Below are positions 1,155 to 39,462 of a stretch of 40,367 nt of DNA, piece by piece (position 1 is the first letter of the stretch; every line of letters starts with the position of its first letter). This stretch comes from a virus. The notes under the pieces were generated by a model, which searched no databases, was not told where the DNA came from, and saw only the letters and a program-made list of their open reading frames with translations. A program made the translations under genes and the position numbers. Location: positions 1 through 40,367 of IMG/VR virus record IMGVR_UViG_3300046045_000002; one strand, 5' to 3'.

Positions 1155-1177
1155 CACCTACTAGTCACTAGTAGGTG
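1155..1177. repeat. 23-bp palindrome copy 1 (cacctactag-tca-ctagtaggtg)
   Basis: Exact 10-bp arms. Intergenic, 59 nt after the polymerase stop. Confidence 0.95.
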
Positions 1178-1553
1178 GGGTGGCGAAAAATATTCGAACC
1201 AACTACTCGAACTAGTAGCTGACGAGTCGTACAAGATCGAACCTTTGAACTGAAGGTAACGAGTCGTTACGCGCCGTCGTCTGCCTCTCATTCTTAGGGA
1301 TGAGCCTGGTTACACCTTCGATCTTGGTACAACCTCCTCCGTCGTCGCAGGTCAAACCCGGTACGTAAGCACGTTGTGTAGATCGTGTGCACGGCGTACG
1401 TTCCATCCACGCAAGACGGCACGGCCCGATCAACCCCCGTCAAGCGCCCCGCGTAACGGGGTTAGGTCGTGCTGTCTCTCGTCACCTCTGCCTCGGCACC
1501 CCCATGCCAAAAACAGGCTGTGACGCAGCCCACAAGGTCTGACCCCGTTCCGC
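1178..1553. other. Long non-coding region, locally low GC, with nested complementary segments
   Basis: No plausible ORF. 1229..1241 (gtacaagatcgaa) complements 1317..1330 (ttcgatcttggtac, one bulge). Hairpin gtaacg-agt-cgttac at 1256..1270. Direct repeat acgagtcgt at 1222..1230 and 1259..1267. Confidence 0.35.
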
Positions 1554-1571
1554 GTAAACCCTCCCGCTCTA
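1554..1571 (+). promoter_or_regulatory. Early-gene motif copy 1 (GTAAACCCTCCCGCTCTA)
   Basis: 16 of 18 match to the GTAAACCCTTGCGCTCTA consensus. 36 nt upstream of the sigma-factor ATG. Confidence 0.55.
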
Positions 1572-1607
1572 GGGCGGGCGACAACGCGAACGAACGGAGC
1601 ACGACCC

Positions 1608-2426
1608 ATGATCGACCTCACCCCCGAGCAGATCGCCGCCGCTAAGGCGAACGACCTCGACGCCGTGACCGCTGTGGTTCAGGCCACGGAGGAAAGGGTT
1701 CAGCAGCTCGCCCGGCAGTACGCCACCACCGCTGGACGCGTGAACGCCGACCTCGCCGAGGAACTCGCGCAGATAGGCCGTATAGCCGTCTGGGAGTCCC
1801 TTAGCCGCTTCAACGGCCACGCGGTGGCCCAGTTCTTCACCTTCATAGACACGACGCTTAAGGGCGTCATGAGCGACGCTCGCAAGGTCGAGACCCGCCC
1901 GGGTGTGTCCCGCTCCGTCGCCGCCGATTTTGAGACAGCGCTCACGATGGCGGGCGGCGACCCGTACGACGCGGAGCGCGTAGCCGCTAGCCCCGCCATG
2001 GGCAAGCGCAAGATGAGCCCCGAAATGGCGTACGCCGCCCGGCTGTCGTGGCAAGGGGTCGAGTACCTCGACGCCCCGATGAACGGCGAGGGCGACGAAA
2101 CGATCACGCTCGGGGAGACGCTTGCCGATCGGGTCGGTCTTCCGGATGACCTGATCGAGGACGCCGATATCGAGTCGTTGCGCAAGCGCGAAATCCGCGA
2201 CCGGGTGCGCGGCATTGTCGGCCGCATGGGGGCACAGCGCCGGTACGTGTTGTCGGGTACCTACGGCCTCCCGTTCGCCCCGTTCTACGGCGAGGGACAC
2301 GATGCCGAAATGGCGGAAGACCTCGGGGTTCCGCGCGACCGCATCAAGACCGTTCGCAGCCTCGCTAAGACGGCATTCCGTAAGACGTGGCTTGCCGGTG
2401 CGCAGTCCGACGCCGACGCCGCCTAA
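1608..2426 (+). CDS. Sigma-70 family (ECF-like) RNA polymerase sigma factor
   Basis: 272 aa. Region-2-like IGRIAVWESLSRF and region-4 HTH-like EMAEDLGVPRDRIKTVRSLAKTAFRK. GGAG upstream of the ATG. Confidence 0.7.
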   Translation: MIDLTPEQIAAAKANDLDAVTAVVQATEERVQQLARQYATTAGRVNADLAEELAQIGRIAVWESLSRFNGHAVAQFFTFIDTTLKGVMSDARKVETRPGVSRSVAADFETALTMAGGDPYDAERVAASPAMGKRKMSPEMAYAARLSWQGVEYLDAPMNGEGDETITLGETLADRVGLPDDLIEDADIESLRKREIRDRVRGIVGRMGAQRRYVLSGTYGLPFAPFYGEGHDAEMAEDLGVPRDRIKTVRSLAKTAFRKTWLAGAQSDADAA

Positions 2427-2451
2427 TTCACCTTTCTGGGAGGGAACTGAA

Positions 2452-2866: not shown

Positions 2867-2889
2867 CACCTACTAGTGACTAGTAGGTG
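2867..2889. repeat. 23-bp palindrome copy 2 (centre tga), extended to a 33-bp palindrome 2862..2894 followed by TTTTTT
   Basis: cacctactagtgactagtaggtg flanked by ggacc/ggtcc, with a T-run at 2895..2900. Looks like an intrinsic terminator. Confidence 0.95.
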
Positions 2890-3549: not shown

Positions 3550-3572
3550 CACCTACTAGTCGCTAGTAGGTG
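3550..3572. repeat. 23-bp palindrome copy 3 (centre tcg), extended by ggg/ccc (3547..3575) plus a T-rich run
   Basis: cacctactagtcgctagtaggtg followed by ccctttcttttt. Terminator-like. Confidence 0.95.
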
Positions 3573-5974: not shown

Positions 5975-7720
5975 GTGTACGCTCGGGGCATGACACCTTC
6001 AGTCCGCGCGGCCGTCGAGGTCGCCAGCGTTCACGGGGCGGCAGACGTAGCAGCTATCTACGTTAGGCAGTCCCGCAAGAAAGCTGACGGTTCCGAGGCA
6101 TCCCCCGCCGTTCAGGTCGAGGAATCCGAGAAAAAGGCTATCGCCCTCGACCTGCGGTCGCTGCCCGTCTACTCGGACGTCGGCATTTCCGGCTACGACC
6201 CGAACGCGGAGCGCCCGGCATTCGAGCGCATGCTCAAGGATGCTGCCGCCGGTAAGTTCTCGAAAATCATCGTGTACTACATGAGCCGATTCTCTCGGCA
6301 AGAGCCGCTAGAGGTGCTCGCAGTAGTCCGCGAACTCTGGTCGTACGGAATCACCATCATTTCCGTGACCGAGGGCGAATTCCGGCCCGACGACTTCGGC
6401 AGCCTCATTCACCTCCTGGCCCGACTGGAAGGAAACCACAAAGAGAGCAAGCTGAAATCAATCAACGTCAAGAAGACGAAACAAAAGGCGCGCAACCTCG
6501 GGGGCTACATGGGCGGACCACCGCCGTACGGGTTCCACACGCGCAAGGTGCTGAAAGACGGCGTGGCCATTCAGGAACTTGTGCCCGACTGGAAGGTGCA
6601 AGCACCGATCGTGCGTGACCTAGTCGCCTACATGCTGGAGCACCGCAACGACCCGGCAGACAAGTTCGGAAAGCACCCGGCGTCAATCCTCGGCGCGTGC
6701 GAATGGCTGAACGCCCACCCGCAAGCCAAACCCCGCCGTGGCGAGACGTGGAAGGACGCGAGCGTTACCCGACTGCTCATCGACCCCCGGCTAGCCGGAT
6801 TCGCCGCCGACTACGTGTACGAGAACGCAGCCGACGAGGAACGGCGCCGGAAGACACGTGCCTACGTAATCCAGCGGGACGACGACGGGCACGAGATCAT
6901 CGGAAACGAAGCAATCGTGACCCCCGCTGACTGGTACACGCTGCAAGAACACCTGCGCAGCCGGGCGAACAAAGGCCGTGCCTCGAACGGCGAATCACTG
7001 TTCGGCGGGTCGGGATTGGTCGACTGCGAGTGCGGGAAGCTGTTCACGTTCTTTTGGGCGCGCAAGACAGACGTCAAGAACTACCGGTGCCCGCGCACCC
7101 GTGTGGACGACGTCGGCCGGACGCACGACGGCGGGAACAGCATTTCGGCGCTGCACCTCGAAGACTGGGTTGCCCGACGCATCTTCGCGCTGATCACCAC
7201 ATCGGCGGGCGACGAGGAAACGCAAGAAATCCTGCTAGAGGCGACTAGGCGCTACGGACGGCGCGTCGAGGCACCGCAGACGGCGGGCGAGCGCACAGAG
7301 CTGGTCCGCGCACGTGCGGCCGACACACAAGCGCTGAACGACCTATACGACCGCGAAGAAGCGGGCGACTACGACGACCCGATCGGCCGAAAGCGGTTCC
7401 GTGACCGCAAAGACAAGATCTTGACCCGGATCAAGGCAGCCGAAAGCCGCCTAGCCGAACTGGACACGATCGAGACACCGGCGCTACCTATCGAGCAGTG
7501 GCTACCCGAGGACGCCGACGCCGACCCGATCGGCCCGGGGTCGTGGTGGCACGGCGCAAGCCTCGACCAGCGTCGGGACATGGTGGCGCTGTTCGTAGAG
7601 CGCATCACGGTCCATAAGGCGGCAAGCAAGGGCGGCAACTACAACGGCGTGGTGTTCAACGCTGGCAGCCGCGCGGAGATTACGTGGGCGAGGCCGCACG
7701 ACGACGAGGAAGACGCCTAG
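5975..7720 (+). CDS. int: Large serine recombinase (integrase)
   Basis: 581 aa. N-terminal resolvase-type motif AAIYVRQSRKK, zinc-ribbon-like CECGK...YRCPR and a C-terminal coiled-coil-like region. The start is either GTG 5975 or ATG 5990. Confidence 0.9.
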   Translation: MYARGMTPSVRAAVEVASVHGAADVAAIYVRQSRKKADGSEASPAVQVEESEKKAIALDLRSLPVYSDVGISGYDPNAERPAFERMLKDAAAGKFSKIIVYYMSRFSRQEPLEVLAVVRELWSYGITIISVTEGEFRPDDFGSLIHLLARLEGNHKESKLKSINVKKTKQKARNLGGYMGGPPPYGFHTRKVLKDGVAIQELVPDWKVQAPIVRDLVAYMLEHRNDPADKFGKHPASILGACEWLNAHPQAKPRRGETWKDASVTRLLIDPRLAGFAADYVYENAADEERRRKTRAYVIQRDDDGHEIIGNEAIVTPADWYTLQEHLRSRANKGRASNGESLFGGSGLVDCECGKLFTFFWARKTDVKNYRCPRTRVDDVGRTHDGGNSISALHLEDWVARRIFALITTSAGDEETQEILLEATRRYGRRVEAPQTAGERTELVRARAADTQALNDLYDREEAGDYDDPIGRKRFRDRKDKILTRIKAAESRLAELDTIETPALPIEQWLPEDADADPIGPGSWWHGASLDQRRDMVALFVERITVHKAASKGGNYNGVVFNAGSRAEITWARPHDDEEDA

Positions 7721-7779: not shown

Positions 7780-7872
7780 CGTGCGCTCAGACGGCCGTCT
7801 GTGGCTTTGGGGTGGTCGGCATAAGCGGAGCGCGACCGTCCGGTTACCTGGGGTGGTCAGACAGCGGGGGTG

Positions 7873-7966
7873 GGATGACGAATGACGAATTTGATAGTCA
7901 TCTGTGTATCCCTTAAGAGCCTCTATAGACATACCGAGATCGTTGTTCGTTTCGTCATTCGTCATC
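7873..7966. repeat. Inverted-arm element, copy A (94 nt)
   Basis: The arm GATGACGAATGACGAA (7874..7889) is perfectly complementary to TTCGTCATTCGTCATC (7951..7966). The 27-nt core gtatcccttaagagcctctatagacat (7906..7932) is identical to the core of copy B. Confidence 0.9.
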
Positions 7967-7968
7967 AC

Positions 7969-7986
7969 GTAAACCGTTGCGCTCTA
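7969..7986 (+). promoter_or_regulatory. Early-gene motif copy 2 (GTAAACCGTTGCGCTCTA), upstream of the tRNA cluster
   Basis: 2 nt after element A and 129 nt upstream of the first tRNA. Confidence 0.55.
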
Positions 7987-8115
7987 GTAGGGAGTGAGGG
8001 AAGGTTCCCGCGCACGAATCTAAAACACTCCTCGGCGGACCGAGGACTTCCCCAAAATCCGCCCGGCGGTCGACTCCCGTGTCTCTCTCCCACGGTTTGA
8101 GCCTGCCGGGCACCT

Positions 8116-8188
8116 TGACGCGTAGCTCAGTCGGCAGAGCAAGGGATTGTTAATCCCTGGGTCGTTGGTTCGAGTCCAACCGTGTCAG
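8116..8188 (+). tRNA. tRNA-Asn (anticodon GTT)
   Basis: Cloverleaf folded by hand: acceptor tgacgcg/cgtgtca, anticodon stem aggga/tccct with loop ttGTTaa, T-arm gttgg-ttcgagt-ccaac. Confidence 0.85.
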
Positions 8189-8265
8189 CGGAGCGTACGA
8201 CGACCCCGTTTGAGGGGCTACGGGTGGCATGCACTCCCCAACCGCAGAGGCGGTTTCGTACGCAA

Positions 8266-8342
8266 CGGCATATAGCTCGAAGCGTGGTTAGAGCGCCGGT
8301 CTGATAAACCGGAGGTTCCAGGTTCGACCCCTGGTGTGCCGA
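8266..8342 (+). tRNA. tRNA-Ile (anticodon GAT)
   Basis: Acceptor cggcata/tgtgccg, anticodon stem ccggt/accgg with loop ctGATaa, T-arm ccagg-ttcgacc-cctgg. Confidence 0.85.
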
Positions 8343-8452
8343 CTGGTGGTAGCCCGTAAGGCCGTGACTGGCATGACTGGCACCACCCTGGGTGAAACCG
8401 GCCCTCACTGCCCGACTAGTCATCGGGTAAGCGGGCGGCGAGTAGCCCTCAA

Positions 8453-8529
8453 GCCGCGTTAGCCCAATCGGTAGAGGCGTCGGTCTTAGGAACCGAAGGT
8501 TAGGGGTTCGAATCCCTTACGCGGTACCA
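8453..8529 (+). tRNA. tRNA with anticodon TAG (Leu by anticodon), short 5-nt variable loop, encoded CCA
   Basis: Acceptor gccgcgt/acgcggt, anticodon stem tcggt/accga with loop ctTAGga (anticodon 8487..8489), T-arm agggg-ttcgaat-ccctt, discriminator A, 3-prime cca. Confidence 0.75.
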
Positions 8530-8530: not shown

Positions 8531-8553
8531 GACCTACTAGTCACTAGTAGGTG
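8531..8553. repeat. 23-bp palindrome copy 4 (centre tca; first base g instead of c)
   Basis: gacctactagtcactagtaggtg, starting 2 nt after the last tRNA. Confidence 0.9.
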
Positions 8554-9652: not shown

Positions 9653-9835
9653 GTGACGTTCCGAGGTCGCTACCTCGCTGTATCACAGAGTGTAGCTACC
9701 AATTCGGACATTATGTGCAGTAGGGGGGCATACCAAATCTCTTGCGACTACCATCTAGTGGACCCGGGCCCAGGGGAAAAACACATGGCCGCAGGTTAGG
9801 GGGTGGGGGGTCTGGCCCCGAAATCCCCGAAAAAC
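9653..9835. other. Candidate cos / packaging-recognition region
   Basis: 183-bp non-coding gap between the HNH and terS genes. G-runs tagggggg (9721..) and ttagggggtggggggtctggcccc (9796..9819). Three gctacc/actacc repeats. The ends themselves cannot be read from the sequence. Confidence 0.3.
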
Positions 9836-9858
9836 CACCTACTAGTGACTAGTAGGTG
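9836..9858. repeat. 23-bp palindrome copy 5 (centre tga)
   Basis: cacctactagtgactagtaggtg, 21 nt upstream of the terS ATG. Confidence 0.95.
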
Positions 9859-9879: not shown

Positions 9880-10347
9880 ATGTCGGGACCGCCCCCGATG
9901 CCAAACGAGCGGAAACGGAAGCTAGGTAACCCTGGGAAGCGGGCACTACCCGTCGTCGCCGAGGTCGCCGACGCTGTACCGCTCGAAAATCCCGCCCCGC
10001 TCCACCTAAAGGCCGAGGGTCGGAAGCTGTGGGAGCGCGTCACGTATGGCGCCCATTGGCTAGCCGAATCGGACACGCCCACACTCACGCTGTTGTGCGA
10101 GAAATACGACCGTCGCGCGCAATTCCTCGCCGACCTCGCCCGCACGGACGCCGTTCTTTTTACGGATAAGGGTTACGCCTATCCGAATCCGCTGGTCGGC
10201 ATGCTGTCGACTATCGAAAACGAAATCGCCCGCCTATTCAGCGCGCTGGGACTCACGCCGACCGACCGAACCCGTATGGGTGTCGCCGAGGTCAAGGCCC
10301 GGAATGCGTTCGAGGAGATGCTAGCGAGGCGACAAGAGAGGGGATAA
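9880..10347 (+). CDS. Terminase small subunit (P27-like)
   Basis: N-terminal NERKRKLGNPGKR motif. ATG preceded by aaagggggcgaaaaccc. Lies directly upstream of terL. Confidence 0.75.
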   Translation: MSGPPPMPNERKRKLGNPGKRALPVVAEVADAVPLENPAPLHLKAEGRKLWERVTYGAHWLAESDTPTLTLLCEKYDRRAQFLADLARTDAVLFTDKGYAYPNPLVGMLSTIENEIARLFSALGLTPTDRTRMGVAEVKARNAFEEMLARRQERG

Positions 10348-10350
10348 CGC

Positions 10351-11865
10351 TTGACGCACCCTCTCTACCTAACGCCCGTCGCCCCCGAGGAAATGGTGAG
10401 CGGCGACGGCCCCGACTTTAACGACTTCACGCAGTTTCTCCGGGTCACAAAGGACTCGATCGGCGGTAGTGCGGGCGAAATCCTCGTGATGCGCCCGTGG
10501 CAGATCGAGCTAATGGATAGGCTCTACGCCCGACGCGCCGACGGCCGACTAAAGCACCGCACAGCGCTCATCGGAATGCCGCGAAAGAACGGCAAGAGCG
10601 CGCTAGCTGCCGGTATTGCGCTGTTCGGCCTAGCTTTCGGCCCCCGTGGTGGCGAAGTCTTTTCCTGCGCTGGTGACAAGGAACAAGCGCGGATCGTTTT
10701 CTCGACCACTAAGCAAATGGTCGAAATGGAGCCGCAATTCGGCTCCATGTTCAAGTGTTATCGCGACGCTATCGAGTTTCCGGCGACGGGCAGCGTTTAC
10801 CGCGTCCTTTCCGCCGAGGCGTACACGAAAGAGGGTCTAAACCCGCACCTTGTCATTTTCGATGAGGTGCACGTTCAGCCCAATCGTGAACTGTGGGACG
10901 TTATGGCGCTCGCTTCGGGCGCCCGTCGTGAGCCGATGATGGTCGGCATTACCACAGCGGGGGTTAAGACCGACTCGACCGGCGGCGACAGCACGTGCTA
11001 TCAGCTCTATCAGCACGGAATGCGCGTTGCCTCGGGCGAGGTGTCCGACCCCGGGTTCTTTATGTCGTGGTGGGGTGCCCCCGAGGGTGCCGTTCACACC
11101 GACCCCGCTGTGTGGGAAGCCTCGAACCCCGGCTTTGACGACATTGTGTCGCGCGAGGATTTCGAGTCGGCCGTGTTGCGTACTCCCGAGAGTGAGTTTC
11201 GCACGAAGCGCCTCAACCAATGGGTGTCGACGGCGCAAGCGTGGCTGCCCGCTGGTACGTGGGAAGCGTGCGAGGACGCCGAGGCGACCATTCCCGACGG
11301 CACCGAGGTAGTTCTAGGGTTCGACGGGTCGTTCTCGAACGACTCGACGGCTATCACGGTCGTTAGGTGCCCGCAGGGCGAGGACGACAAGCCACACATA
11401 GACGTCGTGGCAGCGTGGGAAAAGCCCCGGGAATCGGGCAACGATTGGCGCGTTGACATTCTCGACGTCGAGGCGGAGATTCGGGCAGCCTGCCGACGCT
11501 GGCAGGTGCGAGAGATCGTGTGTGACCCCTATCGGTGGGCGCGCACGTATCAGGTTCTCGAAGACGAGGGTTTGCCGGTCGTTGAGTACCCGCAAAGCCC
11601 CGCCCGCATGGTTCCCGCCACGCAACGCTTTTTCGAGTCGGTGCTGAACAAGACCGTCACTCATTCCGGCGATCAGCGCCTAGCCCGACACCTCGCGAAC
11701 TGTGTGATCCGCACGGACTCCCGAGGCAGCCGGATCACTAAGGACGCTAAGAACTCGCCTCGGAAAATCGACCTCGCTGTCAGTGCCGTGATGGCGCTGG
11801 ACCGGGCGTGTGTCGAGCCGGAACCCGAACCAATTCCGCAGTTCTTTTCGTGGGCCGACCTATAG
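10351..11865 (+). CDS. Terminase large subunit
   Basis: 504 aa. Walker A-like GMPRKNGKS and Walker B-like LVIFDEVH. TTG start preceded by gagagggg. Confidence 0.9.
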   Translation: MTHPLYLTPVAPEEMVSGDGPDFNDFTQFLRVTKDSIGGSAGEILVMRPWQIELMDRLYARRADGRLKHRTALIGMPRKNGKSALAAGIALFGLAFGPRGGEVFSCAGDKEQARIVFSTTKQMVEMEPQFGSMFKCYRDAIEFPATGSVYRVLSAEAYTKEGLNPHLVIFDEVHVQPNRELWDVMALASGARREPMMVGITTAGVKTDSTGGDSTCYQLYQHGMRVASGEVSDPGFFMSWWGAPEGAVHTDPAVWEASNPGFDDIVSREDFESAVLRTPESEFRTKRLNQWVSTAQAWLPAGTWEACEDAEATIPDGTEVVLGFDGSFSNDSTAITVVRCPQGEDDKPHIDVVAAWEKPRESGNDWRVDILDVEAEIRAACRRWQVREIVCDPYRWARTYQVLEDEGLPVVEYPQSPARMVPATQRFFESVLNKTVTHSGDQRLARHLANCVIRTDSRGSRITKDAKNSPRKIDLAVSAVMALDRACVEPEPEPIPQFFSWADL

Positions 11866-11872
11866 GGGCGCT

Positions 11873-12070
11873 ATGGAGCAACAGAAGACGTCCCTACGGG
11901 AACGACTAAGGGGTCTACGGGCCCGAATACCGCGCAGCGCGACGGCCGACGCTTTCGACGTAAGCGGCCTCGGCTGCCTAGTCGGCGCCGCGTGGTGGTG
12001 GCAACCCATTGTCGGCCTTACTGCCCTCGGCCTCGCGCTGCTACTAGCAGGGTGGGTAACGAGTGATTAA
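11873..12070 (+). CDS. Small membrane protein (65 aa)
   Basis: C-terminal hydrophobic segments LGCLVGAAWWW and GLTALGLALLLAGW. Confidence 0.5.
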   Translation: MEQQKTSLRERLRGLRARIPRSATADAFDVSGLGCLVGAAWWWQPIVGLTALGLALLLAGWVTSD

Positions 12071-14020: not shown

Positions 14021-14022
14021 CT

Positions 14023-14045
14023 CACCTACTAGTCACTAGTAGGTG
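14023..14045. repeat. 23-bp palindrome copy 6 (centre tca)
   Basis: Starts 2 nt after the protease stop and ends 8 nt before the capsid ATG. Confidence 0.95.
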
Positions 14046-14053
14046 CTTCCCCG

Positions 14054-15415: not shown

Positions 15416-15424
15416 GCCCTTTAG

Positions 15425-15949: not shown

Positions 15950-15957
15950 GGGTTCGC

Positions 15958-17327: not shown

Positions 17328-17328
17328 T

Positions 17329-17351
17329 CACCTACTAGTCGCTAGTAGGTG
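17329..17351. repeat. 23-bp palindrome copy 7 (centre tcg)
   Basis: Starts 1 nt after the stop at 17327 and ends 19 nt before the next start. Confidence 0.95.
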
Positions 17352-17370
17352 GTCGACCCTAGGAACCCCC

Positions 17371-17568
17371 TTGCCCCTTTTCACGTACACCGGCACAGAC
17401 GAACGCTATTACCCGACGCTAGGCGTCGAGGCTTCCCCGGGCGCCGTTCTCGATCTCCCCGAGGCGCCCGACGATGGTCGATGGGAATCGGCGGCAACTC
17501 CCCAGGGTGCGCCCCTGCCGCTGGAGAACCCGCAGCCCGAGGCCGACCCCGCACCTACGAATCTGTAA
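17371..17568 (+). CDS. Hypothetical Pro-rich protein (65 aa) carrying the LPLENPQP motif
   Basis: TTG start. About 70% GC3 in this frame, against poor GC3 in the overlapping 17349 frame. Confidence 0.5.
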   Translation: MPLFTYTGTDERYYPTLGVEASPGAVLDLPEAPDDGRWESAATPQGAPLPLENPQPEADPAPTNL

Positions 17569-17577
17569 GGGCTGCTC

Positions 17578-19686: not shown

Positions 19687-19709
19687 CACCTACTAGTAAC
19701 TAGAAGGTG
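19687..19709. repeat. 23-bp palindrome copy 8, degenerate (centre taa; one right-arm mismatch)
   Basis: cacctactagtaactagaaggtg, ending 20 nt before the tape measure ATG. Confidence 0.85.
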
Positions 19710-22303: not shown

Positions 22304-22315
22304 CCGATTGGGGGT

Positions 22316-22338
22316 CACCTACTAGTCACTAGTAGGTG
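22316..22338. repeat. 23-bp palindrome copy 9 (centre tca), extended to 33 bp (22311..22343) by ggggt/acccc
   Basis: Exact arms. Ends 25 nt before the GTG at 22364. Confidence 0.95.
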
Positions 22339-22363
22339 ACCCCTCTTACTTGAGGGTGGACAC

Positions 22364-25842: not shown

Positions 25843-25865
25843 CACCTACTAGTCGCTAGTAGGTT
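25843..25865. repeat. 23-bp palindrome copy 10 (centre tcg; last base t)
   Basis: cacctactagtcgctagtaggtt, ending 5 nt before the GTG at 25871. Confidence 0.9.
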
Positions 25866-28275: not shown

Positions 28276-28586
28276 TGGCAGTTTCTCCGAAGGTAAGCGC
28301 GTCGACCGTTGGCGCAGCCGCCTCGACCGTCGTTGTTCAGGTGCTCGCTAAGCACCTCTTTCACGGCGCCGTACCGTCTGACGTCCTCGGCCTGATCGAG
28401 GGCGCCGTAACGGCCGGTGTCACTTTCGCCTCGGGCTATTTCGTCGCGCACGCGCCCAAAACTGTTGCCGAGGTCGAGACGGCCGTAAAGGACGTAGCCG
28501 AGGCAATCCCGTTCACGCAGATGCCGCAGCTACCGCTAGAGAACCCGCAGCCGACTGCACAGCCGCTACCGCCCGCCGGGGCGTAA
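28275..28586 (+). CDS. Holin-like protein (103 aa, two TM segments) with a C-terminal LPLENPQP motif
   Basis: TAATG overlap with the previous gene. Hydrophobic segments VGAAASTVVVQVLA and GAVTAGVTFASGYFVA. Confidence 0.55.
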   Translation: MAVSPKVSASTVGAAASTVVVQVLAKHLFHGAVPSDVLGLIEGAVTAGVTFASGYFVAHAPKTVAEVETAVKDVAEAIPFTQMPQLPLENPQPTAQPLPPAGA

Positions 28587-28600
28587 GCCGTTGCGCTCCC
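28583..28600 (+). promoter_or_regulatory. Early-gene motif copy 3 (GTAAGCCGTTGCGCTCCC)
   Basis: Its TAA is the holin-like gene stop. Only 8 nt upstream of the dNMP kinase ATG. Confidence 0.45.
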
Positions 28601-28633
28601 AATAGGGCATGACCCAAAACATTGCCCTATTGG
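28599..28633. promoter_or_regulatory. Perfect 11-bp inverted repeat bracketing the start codon at 28609
   Basis: ccaatagggca (28599..28609) / tgccctattgg (28623..28633) with a 13-nt spacer. Confidence 0.4.
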
Positions 28634-29148
28634 GCCGTGCGCGTTCCGGAAAAGACACTGTGGCTGCCCGGCTGGTCGAGCGGCACGGATTCACCCGTGT
28701 CGCTTTCGCCGACCCGCTTAAGCGAATGGCCGAGACGGTAAGCCCGTTTGTGCCGACCTCGCCCGGCGTGGTCGTACAACTCGCCCCGCTGATTCGTGAC
28801 GTCGGGTGGGAGTACGCGAAAGACCGGTACCCCGAGGTGCGCCGGTTGCTCCAATGGATTGGGCACACCGTGCGCGACCTCGACCCCGAATTCTGGGTAC
28901 GCGTAGCACTGCACAGCGTCGAGGCTGCACCCGGGCCCGTGGTCGTGACCGACGTCCGGTACCCCAATGAGGCCGAGGCGCTGCGCGCGCGAGGTTTTCG
29001 CATGGTTCGGGTGGTCCGCCCGGGTCAAGATTTGGTCAGTTCTCACGTGAGTGAGACGGCCCTCGATCGGTACCCGCCCGACCTGCGCGTGTTGAACGAC
29101 GGAACCCTAGATGACCTGCGCGAACGCGCCGACGGCCTAGCGGCCTAG
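28609..29148 (+). CDS. Deoxynucleoside monophosphate kinase
   Basis: P-loop LLGRARSGKDT and the FADPLKRMA motif. 179 aa. Confidence 0.75.
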   Translation: MTQNIALLGRARSGKDTVAARLVERHGFTRVAFADPLKRMAETVSPFVPTSPGVVVQLAPLIRDVGWEYAKDRYPEVRRLLQWIGHTVRDLDPEFWVRVALHSVEAAPGPVVVTDVRYPNEAEALRARGFRMVRVVRPGQDLVSSHVSETALDRYPPDLRVLNDGTLDDLRERADGLAA

Positions 29149-29153
29149 CCCTT

Positions 29154-29193
29154 GCCCCGTGCCAGCCCTAACCGGCGGGTGCGGGGCATTTTT
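29154..29193 (+). terminator. Stem-loop plus T-run after the dNMP kinase gene
   Basis: gccccg (29154..29159) / cggggc (29182..29187) followed by attttt. Confidence 0.45.
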
Positions 29194-29202
29194 GCGTTCG
29201 GG

Positions 29203-29225
29203 CACCTACTAGTGACTAGTAGGTG
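29203..29225. repeat. 23-bp palindrome copy 11 (centre tga)
   Basis: Exact arms. Ends 67 nt upstream of ATG 29293. Confidence 0.95.
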
Positions 29226-29292
29226 GTGGTGCGCGTGCCGCGCCGTGTGCTTAGCTACTCCCACAACAACAGAGAACAACGAAGGGGCGGAC

Positions 29293-31140
29293 ATGAACAT
29301 TCAGCTTGGGCGGGGCGGCAAGGTCCACTACGCGGGCGAGCCGGACGGTTACATGCCCGCCCCGAAGTGCGGCGGCAACCGCGCTGTTGAGGGCTACAGG
29401 GCCGTTAAGGCGGAAGTCGACTGTAAGAACTGCCTCAAGATCATGGCCGCCGAGGCGGCTGCGCAGGAAGCGCCCGAGGTCGAGGCGCCCACCGAGGACA
29501 AGGGAGAGACCGTGACCGTTACCGAGGTTCCCGCCGACACGGAGTACGACGCCGCTTTCGAGCGTGGTCGTTCGCTGGGCAAGGATCACGCCGAGGCGCA
29601 CGACTACGCGGCCGAGGTAGTGAGGAACGCGCGGATTCGCGCCGAGCAGGCCACCGAAAAGCTTCAGTACCGCACCATGCACCCCGTGACCGGCAAGCGT
29701 GTCCGTATTCCCTCGCCTAAGCCCGCTAAGTGGGCAGCGTGGGAGAACGGCAACCTTTTCGGCCTCGCCGACGTGGAAACCGTGGCCGAGGCTATTTCCT
29801 CGCTCCCCAAGGGGCGGGAATTCAACGTCACGGCTCTTTTCCCGATTTCCCCCCGCGATGCCGCACAGTCTGGTATCATCGCGCCCGATGTTCCGGTTAG
29901 CGCCGGAACCGCCACCACAGAGGAGAACGAAATGCCCCCTCGCAAGCGCGCTGCCGCTAAGCCCGCTAAGACGGCCGAGGTCGCCCCCGAGGCGCCCGAG
30001 GACACTGCCCCCGCCGACGCTGCCCCGATCGAGGGCGACACGCCCGCCGAGGACACCGCCGACGCTATCCAGCGGGCTAAGGACATCATCGCGCAGGTTC
30101 TCGCAGCCGCCGAGGTCGGCGAGTCGGCCGACCCGAACCGCATCAAGGAACTCGCCGAATCGGCGGAGACAATCATCGGTGAGCTGCCCATGGAGCACCG
30201 CACGGGCCTGCGCGCTGCGCTGGAGGAGGCTAAGCGGGGCGAGTCCTACACGGCCGAGGGTCACGGTAAGGACGGAAAGAAGAAGACGGCGTCTAAGGCC
30301 GTCGCTAAGAAGACGGCTGCGGCTGCGGCTACCAAGGAAACGCAGGACTACAAGCAAGCCATTCCCGACGCCGAAAAGGTCGTCGCCGACGTAGCCGCCG
30401 CGTACGCAAAGGGCGTCGAGTTCGAGCGCGAGAACTCCAACGCTGCCCGCTCGATCGCCGAAAAGGTGCTCGCCGCCCGTCTGTTCCTTTCCGACAAGGA
30501 TGGACACCCGGACTACAACGGCAAGTCGAACGCGGCAAAGGTGCTGTCGGGTGTCGTGTACGCCGCCGCTGGTTCCGGGTTCGAGCGCACCGAGGAAAAC
30601 GAGGACGCCCTAGACCGTCTGGTGAAGTCGGTGCAGAACCTGCGGAATGACGTTCTCGTGAAGTACGTCCGCAACATCGGCAAGGAAGACGCTCACCGGT
30701 TCTTCCCCAAGGCATTCGCGGCCGACCCCGAGGCCGACCCGACCGAGGCCATTCAGAAGTTCTACAAGATTCCGGAGCGCAGCACGTTCGAGATTCAGGC
30801 CGAAAAGCGCCGTCTCGAAAGGGCGCAGCGTAAGGCGCTTGCTGCGGGCAAGGAAAAGGAAGCTAAGGAACTCGGCGAGGCGATCAAGACCGTCGGAAAG
30901 ACCGAGGCCGAGGGCGGCGAGGGTGAGGGCGAGGCTGCCGCCGCGCCTAAGACGGCCGCCGAAAAGCGGAGGGCTAAGCACCTCGCTGCGATCGAGGCCG
31001 CAACGGAAAAGTTCGCCGACCTCGAAAAGGAAATCGAAAAGATCGATGCGGAGGAGGCCGCCGAACTAGTGGCCAAGCTGGAAGCGTTCAACGGCATGTC
31101 GGCGACGCTCACGGCCATGTTGAAGGGTAAGACCGCGTAG
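29293..31140 (+). CDS. Large acidic Ala/Glu/Lys-rich protein of unknown function (615 aa)
   Basis: ATG preceded by gaaggggcggac. N-terminal Cys motif PKCGG...CKNC, AKKT/PAKT basic tracts and long low-complexity acidic stretches. Confidence 0.7.
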   Translation: MNIQLGRGGKVHYAGEPDGYMPAPKCGGNRAVEGYRAVKAEVDCKNCLKIMAAEAAAQEAPEVEAPTEDKGETVTVTEVPADTEYDAAFERGRSLGKDHAEAHDYAAEVVRNARIRAEQATEKLQYRTMHPVTGKRVRIPSPKPAKWAAWENGNLFGLADVETVAEAISSLPKGREFNVTALFPISPRDAAQSGIIAPDVPVSAGTATTEENEMPPRKRAAAKPAKTAEVAPEAPEDTAPADAAPIEGDTPAEDTADAIQRAKDIIAQVLAAAEVGESADPNRIKELAESAETIIGELPMEHRTGLRAALEEAKRGESYTAEGHGKDGKKKTASKAVAKKTAAAAATKETQDYKQAIPDAEKVVADVAAAYAKGVEFERENSNAARSIAEKVLAARLFLSDKDGHPDYNGKSNAAKVLSGVVYAAAGSGFERTEENEDALDRLVKSVQNLRNDVLVKYVRNIGKEDAHRFFPKAFAADPEADPTEAIQKFYKIPERSTFEIQAEKRRLERAQRKALAAGKEKEAKELGEAIKTVGKTEAEGGEGEGEAAAAPKTAAEKRRAKHLAAIEAATEKFADLEKEIEKIDAEEAAELVAKLEAFNGMSATLTAMLKGKTA

Positions 31141-31184: not shown

Positions 31185-31207
31185 CACCTACTAGTCACTA
31201 GTAGGTG
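31185..31207. repeat. 23-bp palindrome copy 12 (centre tca)
   Basis: Exact arms. Ends 19 nt before ATG 31227. Confidence 0.95.
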
Positions 31208-32078: not shown

Positions 32079-32118
32079 ATGCCCGCAGACGGGCGCGTGT
32101 GGCCTCGACAGCGGGCAG

Positions 32119-32211
32119 GATGACGAGTGACGACTTTTACATGAACCTCGGTATCCCTTAAGAGCCTCTATAGACATTCCTGAACGACTACCAATTTCGT
32201 CATTCGTCATC
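32119..32211. repeat. Inverted-arm element, copy B (93 nt)
   Basis: Arms GATGACGAGTGACGAC (32120..32135) and TTCGTCATTCGTCATC (32196..32211). The 27-nt core at 32152..32178 is identical to copy A. Spacer lengths are the same as in A (16 and 17 nt) but the spacer sequences differ. Confidence 0.9.
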
Positions 32212-32223
32212 GGCCGGTCGGCC

Positions 32224-32241
32224 GTAAACCCTTGCGCTCCC
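32224..32241 (+). promoter_or_regulatory. Early-gene motif copy 4 (GTAAACCCTTGCGCTCCC)
   Basis: 12 nt after element B and 37 nt upstream of ATG 32279. Confidence 0.55.
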
Positions 32242-33303: not shown

Positions 33304-33521
33304 CCGCCGTTCGCGTGGTCCAGACGAAACCGGCGTTCAAGTACCCCGCCGGTAAGCACTGGGGGCCGTACAAGCACCTTGCCGACGCCCTAGAGCGCGT
33401 GAAGCTACTGCGGCGTCATGGGGGCGACGGAAAGGTTCAGGCGGGGGAGTGGAATCCCTGCGTGATGACCCGCCCCGAGGTCGAGTGGGACGTGTCCGAG
33501 GACGACGCCGACGGCGCGTAA
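33300..33521 (+). CDS. Hypothetical protein (73 aa)
   Basis: ATG overlapping the previous stop. The ORF ends inside motif copy 5. Confidence 0.5.
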   Translation: MTAVRVVQTKPAFKYPAGKHWGPYKHLADALERVKLLRRHGGDGKVQAGEWNPCVMTRPEVEWDVSEDDADGA

Positions 33522-33535
33522 ACCCTTGCGCTCTA
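33518..33535 (+). promoter_or_regulatory. Early-gene motif copy 5 (GTAAACCCTTGCGCTCTA, consensus)
   Basis: Its TAA is the stop of the upstream gene. 41 nt upstream of ATG 33577. Confidence 0.55.
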
Positions 33536-33576: not shown

Positions 33577-33960
33577 ATGGAGCGAATCAAGGTCACCGAG
33601 GCGCAGGTTAAGACGGCGCTGATCGAGGCGGTTGCCGAAAAGGGCGACGACTACGTGTACACGAACCCGGACGGCGAGTCGGCCACGGGTGCGGCTGCCT
33701 CTTGCTACTACGTGCACGGCGACAAGCCCGGCTGTCTGGTCGGCAACGCGCTTCACCGCCTCGGGGTTCCGCTGTCGGCGCTTGAGGCGCATGAGATGCG
33801 CGGGGCGTACAGCGTGGCTAAGGAACTGATCGACGTCACGGACAGCAGCAGCACTTTCACCATGCTGGCCGAAGTGCAGGACTCGCAGGACAACGGCGCC
33901 ATGTGGGGTGATGCCCTCGCCTACGCCGGGGTTGTGACCCGGGTCGGCGACGACGCGTAA
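33577..33960 (+). CDS. Hypothetical protein (127 aa)
   Basis: ATG preceded by gaggagagaacggca. Confidence 0.6.
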   Translation: MERIKVTEAQVKTALIEAVAEKGDDYVYTNPDGESATGAAASCYYVHGDKPGCLVGNALHRLGVPLSALEAHEMRGAYSVAKELIDVTDSSSTFTMLAEVQDSQDNGAMWGDALAYAGVVTRVGDDA

Positions 33961-33974
33961 ACCGCTGCGCTCTA
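33957..33974 (+). promoter_or_regulatory. Early-gene motif copy 6 (GTAAACCGCTGCGCTCTA)
   Basis: Its TAA is the stop of the upstream gene. 73 nt upstream of ATG 34048, with the hairpin gagggggcgggaaag/ctttcccgccctc in between. Confidence 0.5.
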
Positions 33975-35786: not shown

Positions 35787-35820
35787 GGGGTCGGAGCGCT
35801 CACGCGTTCCGGCCCCTTTT
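35787..35820 (+). terminator. Intrinsic terminator
   Basis: ggggtcgga (35787..35795) / tccggcccc (35808..35816; one G-U pair) followed by tttt. Confidence 0.6.
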
Positions 35821-35827
35821 CGTGTTT

Positions 35828-35850
35828 CACCTACTAGTCACTAGTAGGTG
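35828..35850. repeat. 23-bp palindrome copy 13 (centre tca)
   Basis: Exact arms. Ends 13 nt before the GTG at 35864. Confidence 0.95.
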
Positions 35851-36565: not shown

Positions 36566-36949
36566 GTGCGCCCTGATTGGGATTCGTACTTTCTCGGCAT
36601 TGCGCGCGCTGTGGCTGCCCGTGCCGACTGCACCCGCCGACAGGTTGGCGCCGTGGTGGTCGACACGGGGAACCGTGTTCTCTCGGTGGGGTACAACGGT
36701 GCCCCGCCGGGAGTTCCCGGATGCCTCACAGCGGGTGCGTGCCCTCGGGGCCGACTGAGTAAGGCCGACGTCCCCTCGGGAACCGGCGATTACGACCATT
36801 GCGTAAGCGTGCACGCCGAGGCTAACGCGCTGTTGTATTCCGACCCAGTGCGCCGGATTGACGGCACGCTGTATTGCACTGATGAGCCGTGCCCCGGCTG
36901 CCGGAAGCTGATCGAGGGCGCTGGAATTGCCCGGGTGGTGGTCGCGTAA
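36566..36949 (+). CDS. dCMP deaminase
   Basis: VHAEANAL and EPCPGC zinc-binding motifs. GTG preceded by ggaaggctgaca. Confidence 0.85.
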   Translation: MRPDWDSYFLGIARAVAARADCTRRQVGAVVVDTGNRVLSVGYNGAPPGVPGCLTAGACPRGRLSKADVPSGTGDYDHCVSVHAEANALLYSDPVRRIDGTLYCTDEPCPGCRKLIEGAGIARVVVA

Positions 36950-36963
36950 ACCCTTGCGCTCTA
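36946..36963 (+). promoter_or_regulatory. Early-gene motif copy 7 (GTAAACCCTTGCGCTCTA, consensus)
   Basis: Its TAA is the deaminase stop. 23 nt upstream of ATG 36987. Confidence 0.55.
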
Positions 36964-36986
36964 TGGCGGGCGAGGAAAGGAAAACC

Positions 36987-39425
36987 ATGAAATTCTCTGA
37001 CGTCCTCGCCCGGTTCGCTGATGTGGACGAGCAGCACGACGGCGGGTACCTCGCGCTGTGTCCGGCGCACATGGACTCCCGTCCGTCCCTGCGTATTTGG
37101 CGGGGTGACGACAACAAGGTTCGGATCACGTGCCGGGCAGGCTGCGGAACCGAGGCTGTCATAGCGTCGGTGGGGCTTGAGTGGCGCGACTTGTTCGAGG
37201 CGACCGGCGAGGGGCTGACGGTGCCCAAGGAACCGCCCGCCATGGTCGGCACGGGGCACATTGCTGCGCTTGCGCGCTATGTGGACGAGACATCGATGAT
37301 GCTCGGGGACTACGCCCAAGACTGGTCAACGCAAGCGCGCGAGTACCTCGACCGCCGGTTCGGCCTTTCCGTGGAACTCGCCGCCGAATTGTTGATCGGT
37401 GTCGATGCCCCGGACTGGCACTTGCCGTTCAAGCATTTGTCGTCGGCGTTCCGCGCCTACCCGCGTCTTACGGTTCCGCTGGTCGGTTTCGACGGCGTTG
37501 CCCGAGGCTTGCAGGGGCGGGACCTTTCCGGCCGTTGCCCGGGTCGGTGGCTGTCGCTCAGCAACCCCGAGGGGGCCGTGTGGGCGCCGTACGGCGTGTT
37601 TCACGGGCAGGGTGGCTACGGTGTCACTCTGGTGACCGAGGGGCCGGGAGACGCGCTCACAGCCGTTGCTGTCGGCTACAACGCCGTAGGGGTCCGGGGC
37701 GCGAGTCTCTCGCACAAGCCCGAGTTGATCGCTGAACTCGCCGAGGGTCTGCGCGGCACTCAGGTGATCGTGTGTGGCGACAACGACAACGCGGGCGAGG
37801 GGTTCACGCGCCGACTGGTCGAGGGACTCGCCGCCCACGGGATCGAGGTGTTCGCCCTCGAAATCCCGCACAGCGGCGACGACTTGACCGATTGGCGTAC
37901 ACGCGACCCTCACGGGTTCCCCCTCGCGCTGCACCGTGCCGTCAAGGCGGCTAGGCCGGTTCGCGACCGTGCCGAGGTCGAGGCGGCTGCCGTGTCGGCC
38001 GAACTCACCGATCGCACCGGCGCCGACACCGTGTCGGGTGACCAGGGCGCCGAGGCCGCAAAGATTCTCGCCGGTCTTATCAACCGGTACGGGGAATCCG
38101 ACGCCATGAACGCTCACGCGCTTGTGGCATGGACGGACGGCCGGATCAAGTACGCCCCGGGCCTCGGCTACTACGTGTGGAACGGCCGGACGTGGGAGCG
38201 TTCCGAGGTCAAGGTTCGGCAGGAAGTCCACCGCATGGGCGCTGCGCTGATCCTGGCCAACAAGCTAACCGAGGCTAAGCCGTTCACCATGACGACGCGT
38301 ATCGACGCGTTGCTTACGGAACTGCGTAGCGTGCCCTCGGTGCATGTCGACGCTGCGGCATTCGACGCCCGGCCGGACTTGCTCAGCTTCCGGAACGGGA
38401 CTGTCGACCTGCGCACCGGCACCCTGCGCCCGCACGATAAGCGGGACATGTTGACTTTCTCGCTGCCCCTCGACTACGACCCGTCGGCGCGCGCGGAGCG
38501 CTGGGAGCGGTTCATCGAGGAAGTCATGCCGGGCATGCCAGAAATGCCGTCGTACCTGCGGCGGCTGGTCGGCTACGGCATTACCGGCCACACGTCCGAG
38601 CAGTGTTTCGCTGTGCTGTGGGGAATCGGCGCCAACGGGAAGTCGGTGTTCACGGACACGCTCACCGAGGTGTTCAGCACGATCACTAAGACAACCCCGT
38701 TCGCCACGTTCGAGGACAAGGGTTCCGGCGGAATCCCCAACGACATTGCGGCGTTGCGCGGAGCGCGCTTGGTCATGGCGTCCGAGGGCGAGTCGGGTAA
38801 GGCCATGTCCGAGGCCGTACTCAAGAGGGTGACCGGTAAGGACAAGGTGACCGCGCGGTTCCTGCGGCAAGAGTTCTTCACGTTCGCCCCGACGTTCCTG
38901 ATCATGCTTGCCACGAACCACAAGCCCCGCTTTAAGGGGCAAGACGAGGGACTGTGGCGACGGGTCAAGATGATCCCGTTCCGCCGGTACTTTGCGCCCG
39001 AGGAACGTGATTACGGCCTCGCCGACGCGCTGTTGCGCGAGGCGCCCGGGATCGTGGCATGGGCCGTGCGAGGTGCTGTCGAGTGGTACCGCGAGGGACT
39101 CGCCGACCCGGGGCCCGTACGCAACGCCACCCGCGAATACCGCGAGACGTCCGACGCCCTACAGGGCTTCTGCCCGGGTGTGGTCGAGGTGACCGGCGAC
39201 GACAACGACCGGTTGCTAGGGAACGAGTGCTTTAACACTTACCTCGATTGGTGCGAGGCCGAGAACCTGCCGCAGAAGGAACGATGGACCCGGCAGGCTT
39301 TCTATCGCGCCATGGAAGAGCGCAAGGTGAAGCGCCGGAAGACGGCACAGGGGATCACACTGTTCGGTGTGCGCCTCGCCGACGCTGCGCCGGTCGAACC
39401 GGGCCCGGGAATCTTCGCTAAGTAG
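36987..39425 (+). CDS. Bifunctional DNA primase (zinc finger plus TOPRIM) / SF3 (D5/P4-type) helicase
   Basis: CPAHMDSRPSLRIW...CRAGC, TOPRIM-like VTEGPGDAL...VCGDNDNAGEGF, and Walker A WGIGANGKS with a P4/D5-type C-terminal region. Confidence 0.85.
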   Translation: MKFSDVLARFADVDEQHDGGYLALCPAHMDSRPSLRIWRGDDNKVRITCRAGCGTEAVIASVGLEWRDLFEATGEGLTVPKEPPAMVGTGHIAALARYVDETSMMLGDYAQDWSTQAREYLDRRFGLSVELAAELLIGVDAPDWHLPFKHLSSAFRAYPRLTVPLVGFDGVARGLQGRDLSGRCPGRWLSLSNPEGAVWAPYGVFHGQGGYGVTLVTEGPGDALTAVAVGYNAVGVRGASLSHKPELIAELAEGLRGTQVIVCGDNDNAGEGFTRRLVEGLAAHGIEVFALEIPHSGDDLTDWRTRDPHGFPLALHRAVKAARPVRDRAEVEAAAVSAELTDRTGADTVSGDQGAEAAKILAGLINRYGESDAMNAHALVAWTDGRIKYAPGLGYYVWNGRTWERSEVKVRQEVHRMGAALILANKLTEAKPFTMTTRIDALLTELRSVPSVHVDAAAFDARPDLLSFRNGTVDLRTGTLRPHDKRDMLTFSLPLDYDPSARAERWERFIEEVMPGMPEMPSYLRRLVGYGITGHTSEQCFAVLWGIGANGKSVFTDTLTEVFSTITKTTPFATFEDKGSGGIPNDIAALRGARLVMASEGESGKAMSEAVLKRVTGKDKVTARFLRQEFFTFAPTFLIMLATNHKPRFKGQDEGLWRRVKMIPFRRYFAPEERDYGLADALLREAPGIVAWAVRGAVEWYREGLADPGPVRNATREYRETSDALQGFCPGVVEVTGDDNDRLLGNECFNTYLDWCEAENLPQKERWTRQAFYRAMEERKVKRRKTAQGITLFGVRLADAAPVEPGPGIFAK

Positions 39426-39439
39426 CCGTCCGCTGTGGG

Positions 39440-39462
39440 GCACCTTCTAGTCACTAGTAGGT
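39440..39462. repeat. 23-bp palindrome copy 14 (centre tca; one left-arm mismatch), extended by gggg/cccc (39436..39466)
   Basis: caccttctagtcactagtaggtg followed by cccctttg. Ends 25 nt before the polymerase ATG. Confidence 0.9.

Follow-up and report, generated by a model that had tools for sequence, protein, structure and literature searches.

The immunity repressor of Streptomyces phage phiC31 (Lomovskayavirus C31) occurs as three isoforms and has multiple dispersed binding sites (PMC4557955). In mycobacteriophage L5, stoperators block transcript elongation (PMC4557955), and in the Streptomyces phages R4 and phiJoe/phiScoe the repressor gene lies between the lysis and the early genes and at least eight intergenic binding sites are reported (PMC10276819). 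Here, we analysed a family of 23-bp palindromes in the viral record IMGVR_UViG_3300046045_000002 of IMG/VR (positions 1 to 40,367; this whole stretch of 40,367 nucleotides is hereafter named the window). Comparison with phiC31 and with other relatives indicates that these palindromes are very probably the operators of a c-type immunity repressor encoded at 29293-31140, and that they are homologous to the conserved inverted repeats (CIRs) known in phiC31 since the 1990s. The initial annotation of the window had rightly pointed to the CIRs as a precedent; the relationship appears to be one of homology rather than mere analogy.

The palindromes and the c-type repressor gene

The whole window was searched for CACCTACTAGNNNCTAGTAGGTG with up to three mismatches, and the result was compared with 100 dinucleotide-preserving shuffles, a control that the initial annotation had proposed. 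The pattern CACCTACTAG-NNN-CTAGTAGGTG has 14 matches in the window and none in the shuffles. The family is sharply bounded: its 14 copies lie within two mismatches of the 22 specified bases, and the next-best site in the genome has 7-8. Thirteen of the annotated positions were recovered exactly, and only the last copy had to be moved, from 39440 to 39441. The quality of the arms was also as described, with ten copies free of arm mismatches and four carrying one (8531, 19687, 25843 and 39441). On the other hand, the description of 10-bp arms around a centre triplet is better replaced by 11-bp arms around a single central base, where the centre reads T-N-A. This central base is unconstrained and varies among orthologous sites; in a Streptomyces noursei prophage, the series reads T, T, C, T, A, G, C, A. 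Because the centre base is free, the orientation that had been given to each copy from its centre triplet is without support. The arms keep one identical 10-bp sequence across the copies of the window, of a relative and of the prophage, and covariation was never seen.

All 14 copies are located in intergenic gaps of our gene map. None is inside a coding sequence, as had been stated, and the only possible overlap with a start codon concerns the terminal GTG, at 9856, 17349 and 35848. An intergenic placement is open to about 7% of positions, which gives p ~7e-17 for 14 of 14. The copies begin just past a stop codon or a tRNA end, as annotated for 13 of them within 1-60 nt; in fact all 14 do so, at 1-59 nt. 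Ten had also been said to end close to the next start codon, and we find about ten within 25 nt of the next plausible one, at 8531, 9836, 14023, 17329, 19687, 22316, 25843, 31185, 35828 and 39441. The idea that the copies mark most operon boundaries was overstated, since a copy is present in 14 of the 29 gaps of at least 20 nt. Six of the 14 copies are within the late region.

The initial annotation had reported no recognisable repressor and an unknown binding partner, and had proposed the small phage zinc-finger proteins as candidates. These are not needed, as the window encodes a c-type immunity repressor of 615 residues (29293..31140, + strand), the predicted partner of the palindromes. This open reading frame (ORF) matches Pfam PF25746 ('Streptomyces phage repressor protein c', Phage_Repressor_c) with 127.7 bits for a cutoff of 27 (E 7.8e-37), over profile positions 3-342 of 352. 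The c protein of phiC31 and gp26 of phage Rowa match the same family, and tblastn links the window c to phiC31 c and to the Rowa 'immunity repressor'. Against phiC31 c, BLASTP gives identities of 54% for the N-terminal domain (E 9e-17) and of 25% over 287 residues for the C-terminal domain (E 5e-10). The gene was overlooked at first because the PF25746 family has no canonical Pfam helix-turn-helix match. It lies in a large ORF (29152-31140, + strand), whose true start is the ATG at 29293, preceded by GAAGGGG; the public Joint Genome Institute (JGI) gene call is identical (P0004). No sequence relative of the c repressor was found among solved structures, and a profile search for further c homologues added nothing.

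As in phiC31, c comes behind the lysis and dNMP kinase genes, on the same strand and ahead of the early genes; the phiC31 repressor gene is described as placed likewise relative to the virion/lysis and early genes (PMC4557955). More generally, the window, phiC31 (L001) and Rowa (L002) have a common gene order: dNMP kinase, c, early genes, primase, polymerase, gp12/sigma-like, serine integrase, tRNAs and terminase. The layout upstream of c is also the same in the window, phiC31, Rowa and the metagenomic relatives L038 and L043. It consists of a hairpin with a T-run (29153..29193 in the window), a palindrome, about 65 nt, ACAACGAAGGGGCGG and the ATG. In L038 and L043, a clear TTGAC(T/A)-N18-TAG(G/T)CT promoter starts directly past this palindrome.

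The sites themselves are syntenic. Gaps that hold a site in at least two of the three phages (window, phiC31, Rowa) are the primase-polymerase gap, the gap past the polymerase gene, those that follow the tape measure gene, the long tail protein gene and the tRNAs, the one ahead of the terminase gene, and the one separating c from the dNMP kinase gene.

For a wider comparison, c-type repressor loci were gathered from viral contigs and from one S. noursei genome, that of strain GCA_044767795.1, and the most frequent palindrome was listed for each locus. Every c-repressor phage examined has its own multi-copy palindrome built on AC(C/A)TAC...GTA(G/T)GT. In phiC31, the same scan gives 15 copies of (A)CCTACTCAC|GTGAGTAGG(T); about 20 copies of CACCT(A/C)CGGATTTTCGGAGGTG are present in Rowa. 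The outer half-site ACCTACT/AGTAGGT is common to the window and phiC31 sites, but the inner bases differ. The shorter outer ACCTAC...GTAGGT is common to the window, phiC31 and Rowa, and the outer hexamers occur in all five repressor groups, with a spacing of 9 bp in the window group alone and of 8 bp in all others. These five groups use four operator types: CACCTACTAGT-N-ACTAGTAGGTG in the window, in a 35-kb relative (L039) and in the S. noursei prophage (L048); its own inverted repeat CCTACTCACGTGAGTAGG in phiC31; variants of ACCTACGGA...CCGTAGGT or ACCTACGGA...TCCGTAGGT in Rowa, L044, L038, L041 and L043; and AGCTACTGAATTCAGTAGTT in L045 and L047.

The operator types track the C-terminal domain groups of the repressors, and the operator groups coincide with identity clusters of the C-terminal 340 residues. 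In particular, the window and L038 repressors are 84% identical in the N-terminal domain and 32% in the C-terminal domain, and their operators differ. Hence, specificity would follow the PF25746 domain. Conversely, the c protein of the S. noursei prophage is 50% identical to that of the window, and this prophage carries eight copies of the same 23-mer in 21.7 kb, at syntenic positions. In work of Ingham et al. from 1994 and Wilson et al. from 1995, the 42-kDa C-terminal isoform of phiC31 is said to bind the CIRs; specificity in the PF25746 domain presumably fits this isoform as the DNA-binding form of phiC31.

Along the genome, palindrome 1 (1155..1177; exact, centre TCA) is located 59 nt past the DNA polymerase stop, just 3' of a separate hairpin (1115-1149). 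It is syntenic with phiC31 site 29548 and Rowa site 31600, each after the polymerase gene. A sequence 48 nt downstream (1201-1220, AACTACTCGAACTAGTAGCT), operator-like with the 8-bp spacing of the other repressor groups, is probably not a site, as its counterpart in the closest relative is not palindromic. Palindromes 2 (2867..2889; exact, centre TGA) and 3 (3550..3572; centre TCG) are terminator-like: both have a T-run, together with a GC stem extension of 6 bp in the former and an extension of 3 bp in the latter. Palindrome 4 (8531..8553; one mismatch) begins 1 nt past tRNA-Leu (8453-8529), and its Rowa counterpart lies directly past the last Rowa tRNA. Palindrome 5 (9836..9858; exact) ends 21 nt ahead of the small terminase start (ATG 9880), and its phiC31 counterpart, site 1223, is also ahead of the terminase gene. 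Palindrome 6 (14023..14045; exact) stands between the head protease and major capsid genes. Palindrome 7 (17329..17351; centre TCG) starts 1 nt past the stop codon of ORF 16824-17327, which itself follows the head-tail adaptor gene.

The tape measure gene is flanked by palindrome 8 (19687..19709; one mismatch, centre TAA), directly ahead of it, and by palindrome 9 (22316..22338; exact), after it. The 5-bp GC extension of the latter is kept in relatives through compensatory change, and phiC31 site 11090 is likewise after its tape measure gene. Palindrome 10 (25843..25865; one mismatch, 4-bp extension) follows the gene of a 1156-residue tail protein. Palindrome 11 (29203..29225; exact) lies between the terminator-like hairpin and c, 67 nt upstream of ATG 29293, and is a candidate autoregulatory operator of c. 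Palindrome 12 (31185..31207; exact) comes after the c terminator-like hairpin, 19 nt ahead of the first early gene (ATG 31227). Palindrome 13 (35828..35850; exact) is in the early region, directly 3' of a terminator-like hairpin. Finally, the gap between the primase and DNA polymerase genes holds palindrome 14 (39441..39463; one mismatch), which has a CCCCTTTG tail and a GC extension of 4 bp; phiC31 site 27543 and Rowa site 29627 occupy the same gap. The left arm of palindrome 14 carries a mismatch in all three phages compared, though a different one (CACCTTC in the window, CATC in two relatives).

Operators, RNA hairpins and other readings

Repressor binding to the palindromes is inferred by homology from phiC31. 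In a lysogen, the repressor made from c would bind all 14 sites as a symmetric oligomer. The site 67 nt upstream of c would abut the c promoter and thereby lead to autoregulation. Sites heading early units and sites wedged between late genes would silence the lytic genes, either by occlusion of initiation or by a stoperator-like block of elongating RNA polymerase. During lytic growth, the unbound sites would be transcribed and would fold into hairpins.

In another reading, no dedicated DNA-binding protein is involved and the palindromes act mainly as transcribed RNA hairpins, which would terminate or attenuate transcription, stabilise 3' ends or provide RNase III-type processing sites between cistrons. 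The core alone folds with -13.3 kcal/mol, and copies with their flanks with -17 to -32 kcal/mol. Stem extensions of at least 3 bp, for which the chance is about 1.6% per site, are found at five of the 14 copies: 2867 (6 bp), 3550 (3 bp), 22316 (5 bp), 25843 (4 bp) and 39441 (4 bp). Extensions of 2 bp are seen at 19687 and 31185. Five of these seven, including the 2-bp one at 31185, had been annotated; those at 25843 and 19687 had not. Across relatives, extensions of 2-5 bp recur with different bases at the three sites compared (after the tape measure, long tail protein and primase genes). Such compensatory changes, by which the extensions are rebuilt, point to selection on pairing. In addition, 2867 and 3550 pass a terminator scan, and the single copies in satellite-like contigs and beside tRNA genes, described below, always top long perfect hairpins.

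Nevertheless, a mainly RNA-level role is unlikely. It predicts covariation in the arms; instead, these have one and the same sequence throughout the 14 copies, a relative with proteins of about 80-94% identity, and a prophage with a repressor of 50% identity. Arms fixed in sequence and flanks fixed in pairing are what protein recognition of the core predicts. Moreover, the palindrome changes in step with the C-terminal domain of the repressor. The GC-rich stem-loop with a T-run that characterises Rho-independent terminators is found in a subset only. Of the T-rich tails initially annotated, those at 2867 and 3550 are clear and that at 39441 is weaker, and a further weak tail is present at 22316. 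The ten other copies lack a T-rich tail, with at most three T in the 10 nt past the stem, and no copy except 2867 and 3550 passes the terminator scan, in line with the initial view that most copies are not classical terminators. Four copies (1155, 29203, 31185 and 35828) directly follow a separate hairpin, with a T-run after the hairpin at the last three, so that the palindrome is not the terminator there. As read from the sequence, these three terminator-like hairpins, all on the + strand, are 29153..29193 with TTTTT, which closes the late operon directly ahead of the c operator and has equivalents in phiC31, Rowa, L038 and L043; 31152..31179 (GGGGCC...GGCCCC with TTTC), after c and separate from palindrome 12; and 35787..35827 (9-bp stem with TTTTCGTGTTT), separate from palindrome 13. 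At gathering thresholds, Rfam reports only three tRNAs and no family match for the palindromes. RNA hairpin function is thus likely a second role of a subset rather than the primary explanation: the copies at 2867, 3550, 22316, 25843 and 39441, which have extra GC pairs and, for two to four of them, U-rich tails, probably double as terminators or attenuators. The simplest reading is that of a protein-recognised core, a subset of whose sites has also been recruited as terminator hairpins. Two further readings have very little probability. As many copies sit just upstream of genes and the phage encodes a sigma-like protein (1608-2426), the palindromes could be promoters or promoter-proximal elements for this factor. 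A perfect palindrome is however non-directional in a genome whose genes all have the same strand; the copies lack any TAnnnT-type -10 element and leave only 5-25 nt to the start codon, and the directional CGCGTAAACC(C/G)(T/C)TGCGCTCTA motif described below is a better promoter candidate. Equally improbable is a host-derived repeat, of the repetitive extragenic palindromic (REP) or miniature inverted-repeat transposable element (MITE) type, or a host-protein site, accumulated by the phage. It has in its favour that 13 Streptomyces genomes and one Embleya genome contain the exact 21-nt core, most often 10-25 nt beyond tRNA-Pro(CGG). The core is nevertheless found once per genome, as 15 stretches in 185,579 species genomes, which does not make a repeat family; the common host REP-like element considered in the initial annotation is rejected on this ground. 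In addition, the eight loci examined adjoin a tyrosine-integrase gene or its remnant, and the motif family is common to c-repressor phages. Likewise counted against a host repeat, no isolated phage in 50,697 records carries the motif, as blastn of a motif-containing 31-mer gave no match there.

These genomic copies have a recurrent context. Ten are 10-25 nt past a tRNA-Pro(CGG) gene, and the Embleya copy is just past tRNA-Ser(CGA). At seven loci, a C-terminal remnant of a tyrosine integrase is found on the other side of the copy, converging on the tRNA gene; at two of these, L028 and L033, all that is left of the tRNA is its 3' part, the form that an attachment junction would have. At L026, an intact tyrosine integrase gene follows tRNA-Ser and is itself followed by the palindrome, small ORFs and an HK97-type capsid gene. 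Seven of the eight closely examined loci are thus beside a tRNA gene or its partial 3' end, and these eight copies probably belong to integrated mobile elements and not to core host DNA. Elsewhere, the copy adjoins an HTH-DUF488 gene (L029, L037; HTH, helix-turn-helix) or a host Nramp gene (L035). At loci L023-L037, each copy tops a perfect hairpin of about 40 bp, the outer stem of which varies between loci by compensatory changes.

Three other functions were considered for the palindrome and rejected. Attachment sites (attB/attP) of the serine integrase do not agree with 14 copies, and at L028 and L033, the two genomic loci that show a junction, this junction is within the tRNA sequence, not the palindrome. 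Cleavage at 14 cohesive-end (cos) or HNH sites would fragment the genome. An effect of CTAG avoidance or restriction was dismissed, CTAG being observed 112 times outside the copies for about 104 expected.

Several observations weigh against the palindromes being operators of c. The C-terminal domain of the repressor, where specificity would reside, is only about 25% identical to that of phiC31. An AlphaFold2 model of c (12-sequence alignment) reached a predicted local distance difference test (pLDDT) score of 60 and a predicted template modelling (pTM) score of 0.26, so that a DNA-binding fold could not be confirmed from it. Inside c (29293-31140) there is no copy, nor any near copy with fewer than seven mismatches, whereas phiC31 has an internal site at 19773; the three-isoform arrangement of phiC31 may not be shared by this phage. 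Given the 9-bp spacing, as compared to 8 bp, the binding geometry must differ somewhat. Streptomyces intrinsic terminators can reportedly lack U tails, according to Ingham, Hunter and Smith in 1995, and the missing T-runs thus leave room for some termination at every copy. Lastly, no c-type repressor was found near the single cores of the satellite-like contigs and tRNA-adjacent junctions. As these cores are always atop a long hairpin, the hairpin would have some function independent of a cis-encoded repressor. Set against the sites as located, the presence of a repressor gene, the syntenic arrangement and the way operators co-vary with repressors, these points still leave an operator function for the palindromes very probable.

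Satellite-like elements and the phage genome

One copy of the predicted operator atop a long hairpin is also found in the viral contigs L020, L003, L005, L006, L011, L013, L014 and L022. In these contigs, it is directly 3' of a capsid gene 62-66% identical to that of the window (14054-15415). Contig L020 (IMGVR_UViG_3300046454_000964) consists of an 8,930-bp unit in exact tandem repetition (99.9% identical). Besides small ORFs, this unit encodes only a capsid protein (62% identical to that of the phage), a serine integrase and an HNH/endonuclease VII protein. A copy of the GTAAACC...GCGCTC promoter-like motif and a homologue of the 48-residue ORF 9653-9799 of the window are also present in it. 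L020 differs from the published Streptomyces satellites MulchRoom and MiniFlayer, and looks like a small capsid-encoding satellite wired into the regulatory signals of the phage.

The L020 unit, the L026 element beside tRNA-Ser and several integrase relics at tRNA-Pro(CGG) all carry the operator. They suggest, tentatively, that the 23-bp operator is a regulatory signal shared by the phage lineage and by small elements that parasitise this lineage, a possibility that we hold as rather doubtful. If true, the c repressor of a helper prophage would silence the satellites and release them on induction, and Streptomyces would have a helper-satellite system wired through a common operator. This observation is the most interesting lead of our analysis.

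A second, directional motif of 21 nt, CGCGTAAACC(C/G)(T/C)TGCGCTCTA, is present in eight copies in the window, at 1551-1571, 7966-7986, 26944-26964, 28580-28600, 32221-32241, 33515-33535, 33954-33974 and 36943-36963. Six of them are 25-60 nt upstream of start codons, in palindrome-free gaps; the remaining two are inside the endolysin gene (26944) and inside ORF 7882-8100 (7966). The 35-kb relative L039 and the S. noursei prophage have kept the motif as well. Its positions match those of motifs conserved within phiC31 (GGGTTGCCGACTCCCTTAC, nine copies) and Rowa (GGCATTCGACTCACTCAC, eight copies), ahead of the dNMP kinase, primase and gp12/sigma genes. The 21-nt motif is probably a phage-specific early promoter family, and the sigma-like protein (1608-2426), a homologue of phiC31 gp12, is a candidate for reading it.

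A 68-bp repeat is found at 7868-7935 and at 32113-32180. The two copies are 81% identical and contain ATCCCTTAAGAGCCTCTATAGACAT; one is located after the integrase gene, the other at the beginning of the early region, directly upstream of the exonuclease gene. Comparable pairs exist in phiC31 (21649-21768/40428-40547) and in Rowa (22984-23046/41059-41121), the latter likewise holding an ATCC(C/A)TAAG(A/G)GTTTCTATAG core. These repeats are possibly immediate-early promoters.

The ends of the window are identical (1-127 = 40241-40367, 100% over 127 bp), indicating a circularly closed contig and a complete, circularly permuted genome of 40,240 bp. Judging from its sequence, the window is the complete genome of a temperate Streptomyces phage syntenic with phiC31. 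Megablast of 20 kb against the same 50,697 phage records returned only tRNA-region fragments, and no close isolate there. In our gene map, built from PHROG and Pfam matches, every gene is on the + strand. The DNA polymerase gene (615 residues, 65% identical to phiC31 gp11) runs from 39488 across the junction to 1095. It is followed by the gene of the sigma-like protein, which is 37% identical to phiC31 gp12 and matches PHROG sigma-factor families (E 1.7e-46), with a weak Sigma70_r2 match. Then come the serine integrase gene (5975-7720), the tRNAs (8116-8529), the terminase, portal, protease, capsid, tape measure and tail genes (9880-25834), and the endolysin (26429-27883) and dNMP kinase (28609-29148) genes. 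Beyond c, the early genes start at 31227 and include those of an exonuclease and an endonuclease VII, and the primase gene occupies about 36990-39425.

One of the tRNAs, the third (8266-8342), was detected with Rfam (58.9 bits) and was not reported by ARAGORN. Between the capsid and head-tail adaptor genes, ORF 15425-15949 would encode a 174-residue protein extremely rich in His, Arg and Lys, with HRHLKHH-type repeats. The GC content by codon position agrees with coding; the protein has no PHROG match, and only its N-terminal 44 residues are kept in a relative.

Comparison with known repressor systems

By its features, the window phage is a member of the phiC31 c-repressor/inverted-repeat system. 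Five of the seven testable features that define this system were found: the c-type repressor, the placement of its gene, repeats dispersed in intergenic positions of the early and late regions, a site upstream of c, and the co-variation of operator and repressor. A site inside c is absent, and the site sequence is related to that of phiC31 only in part. The window phage and phiC31 both have a PF25746 repressor gene at the same position and on the same strand, overall synteny, and near-identical intergenic palindromes among early and late genes. Several gaps holding a site are shared, including that between the terminator and c, and each phage has a separate family of directional, promoter-like motifs. 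The differences lie in the operator: the inner arm is CAC in phiC31 and TAGT in the window, and the phiC31 site is about 18-20 bp long, compared with 23 bp and an odd centre in the window. The window phage is expected to be heteroimmune with phiC31.

As a result of this comparison, a 615-residue 'hypothetical protein' is assigned as an immunity repressor, 14 operators are predicted, and a new immunity specificity is defined within the phiC31-like phages. The five repressor groups constitute a natural experiment, in which ACCTAC is constant while the inner bases and the 8- or 9-bp spacing vary with the C-terminal domain. This marks the seat of operator specificity in a repressor family that has no solved structure. 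Orthogonal pairs of c repressor and operator could serve as tight, portable switches for Streptomyces engineering.

Other systems resemble the window in part. R4 and phiJoe/phiScoe are, like the window phage, temperate Streptomyces siphophages with a similar repressor placement and intergenic sites; a tblastn search with the window c at E 1e-5 gave no R4- or phiJoe-type phage among its matches. The GC-clamped stem and T-rich tail of Rho-independent terminators are seen at 2867 and 3550, and in weaker form at 22316 and 39441. In contrast to such terminators, the other ten copies are tail-less, the core is constrained in sequence, and several copies follow a separate terminator. The stoperators of cluster A mycobacteriophages (L5, Bxb1), bound by gp71, provide a likeness of another kind, with many conserved sites dispersed in short intergenic gaps, even in promoter-less interiors of operons. 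As some window sites are in gaps that leave no room for a promoter, a block of elongation would be the natural reading for them too. However, stoperators are asymmetric 13-bp sites, bound by a monomer in an orientation-dependent manner and recognised by an unrelated repressor, unlike the symmetric window sites with their free centre. With symmetric sites and an unrelated repressor, the window system is therefore outside the cluster A stoperator family. Overall, the palindromes and their predicted repressor represent a new operator allele and immunity group of the phiC31 system, with an extra base of spacing, rather than a new kind of system.

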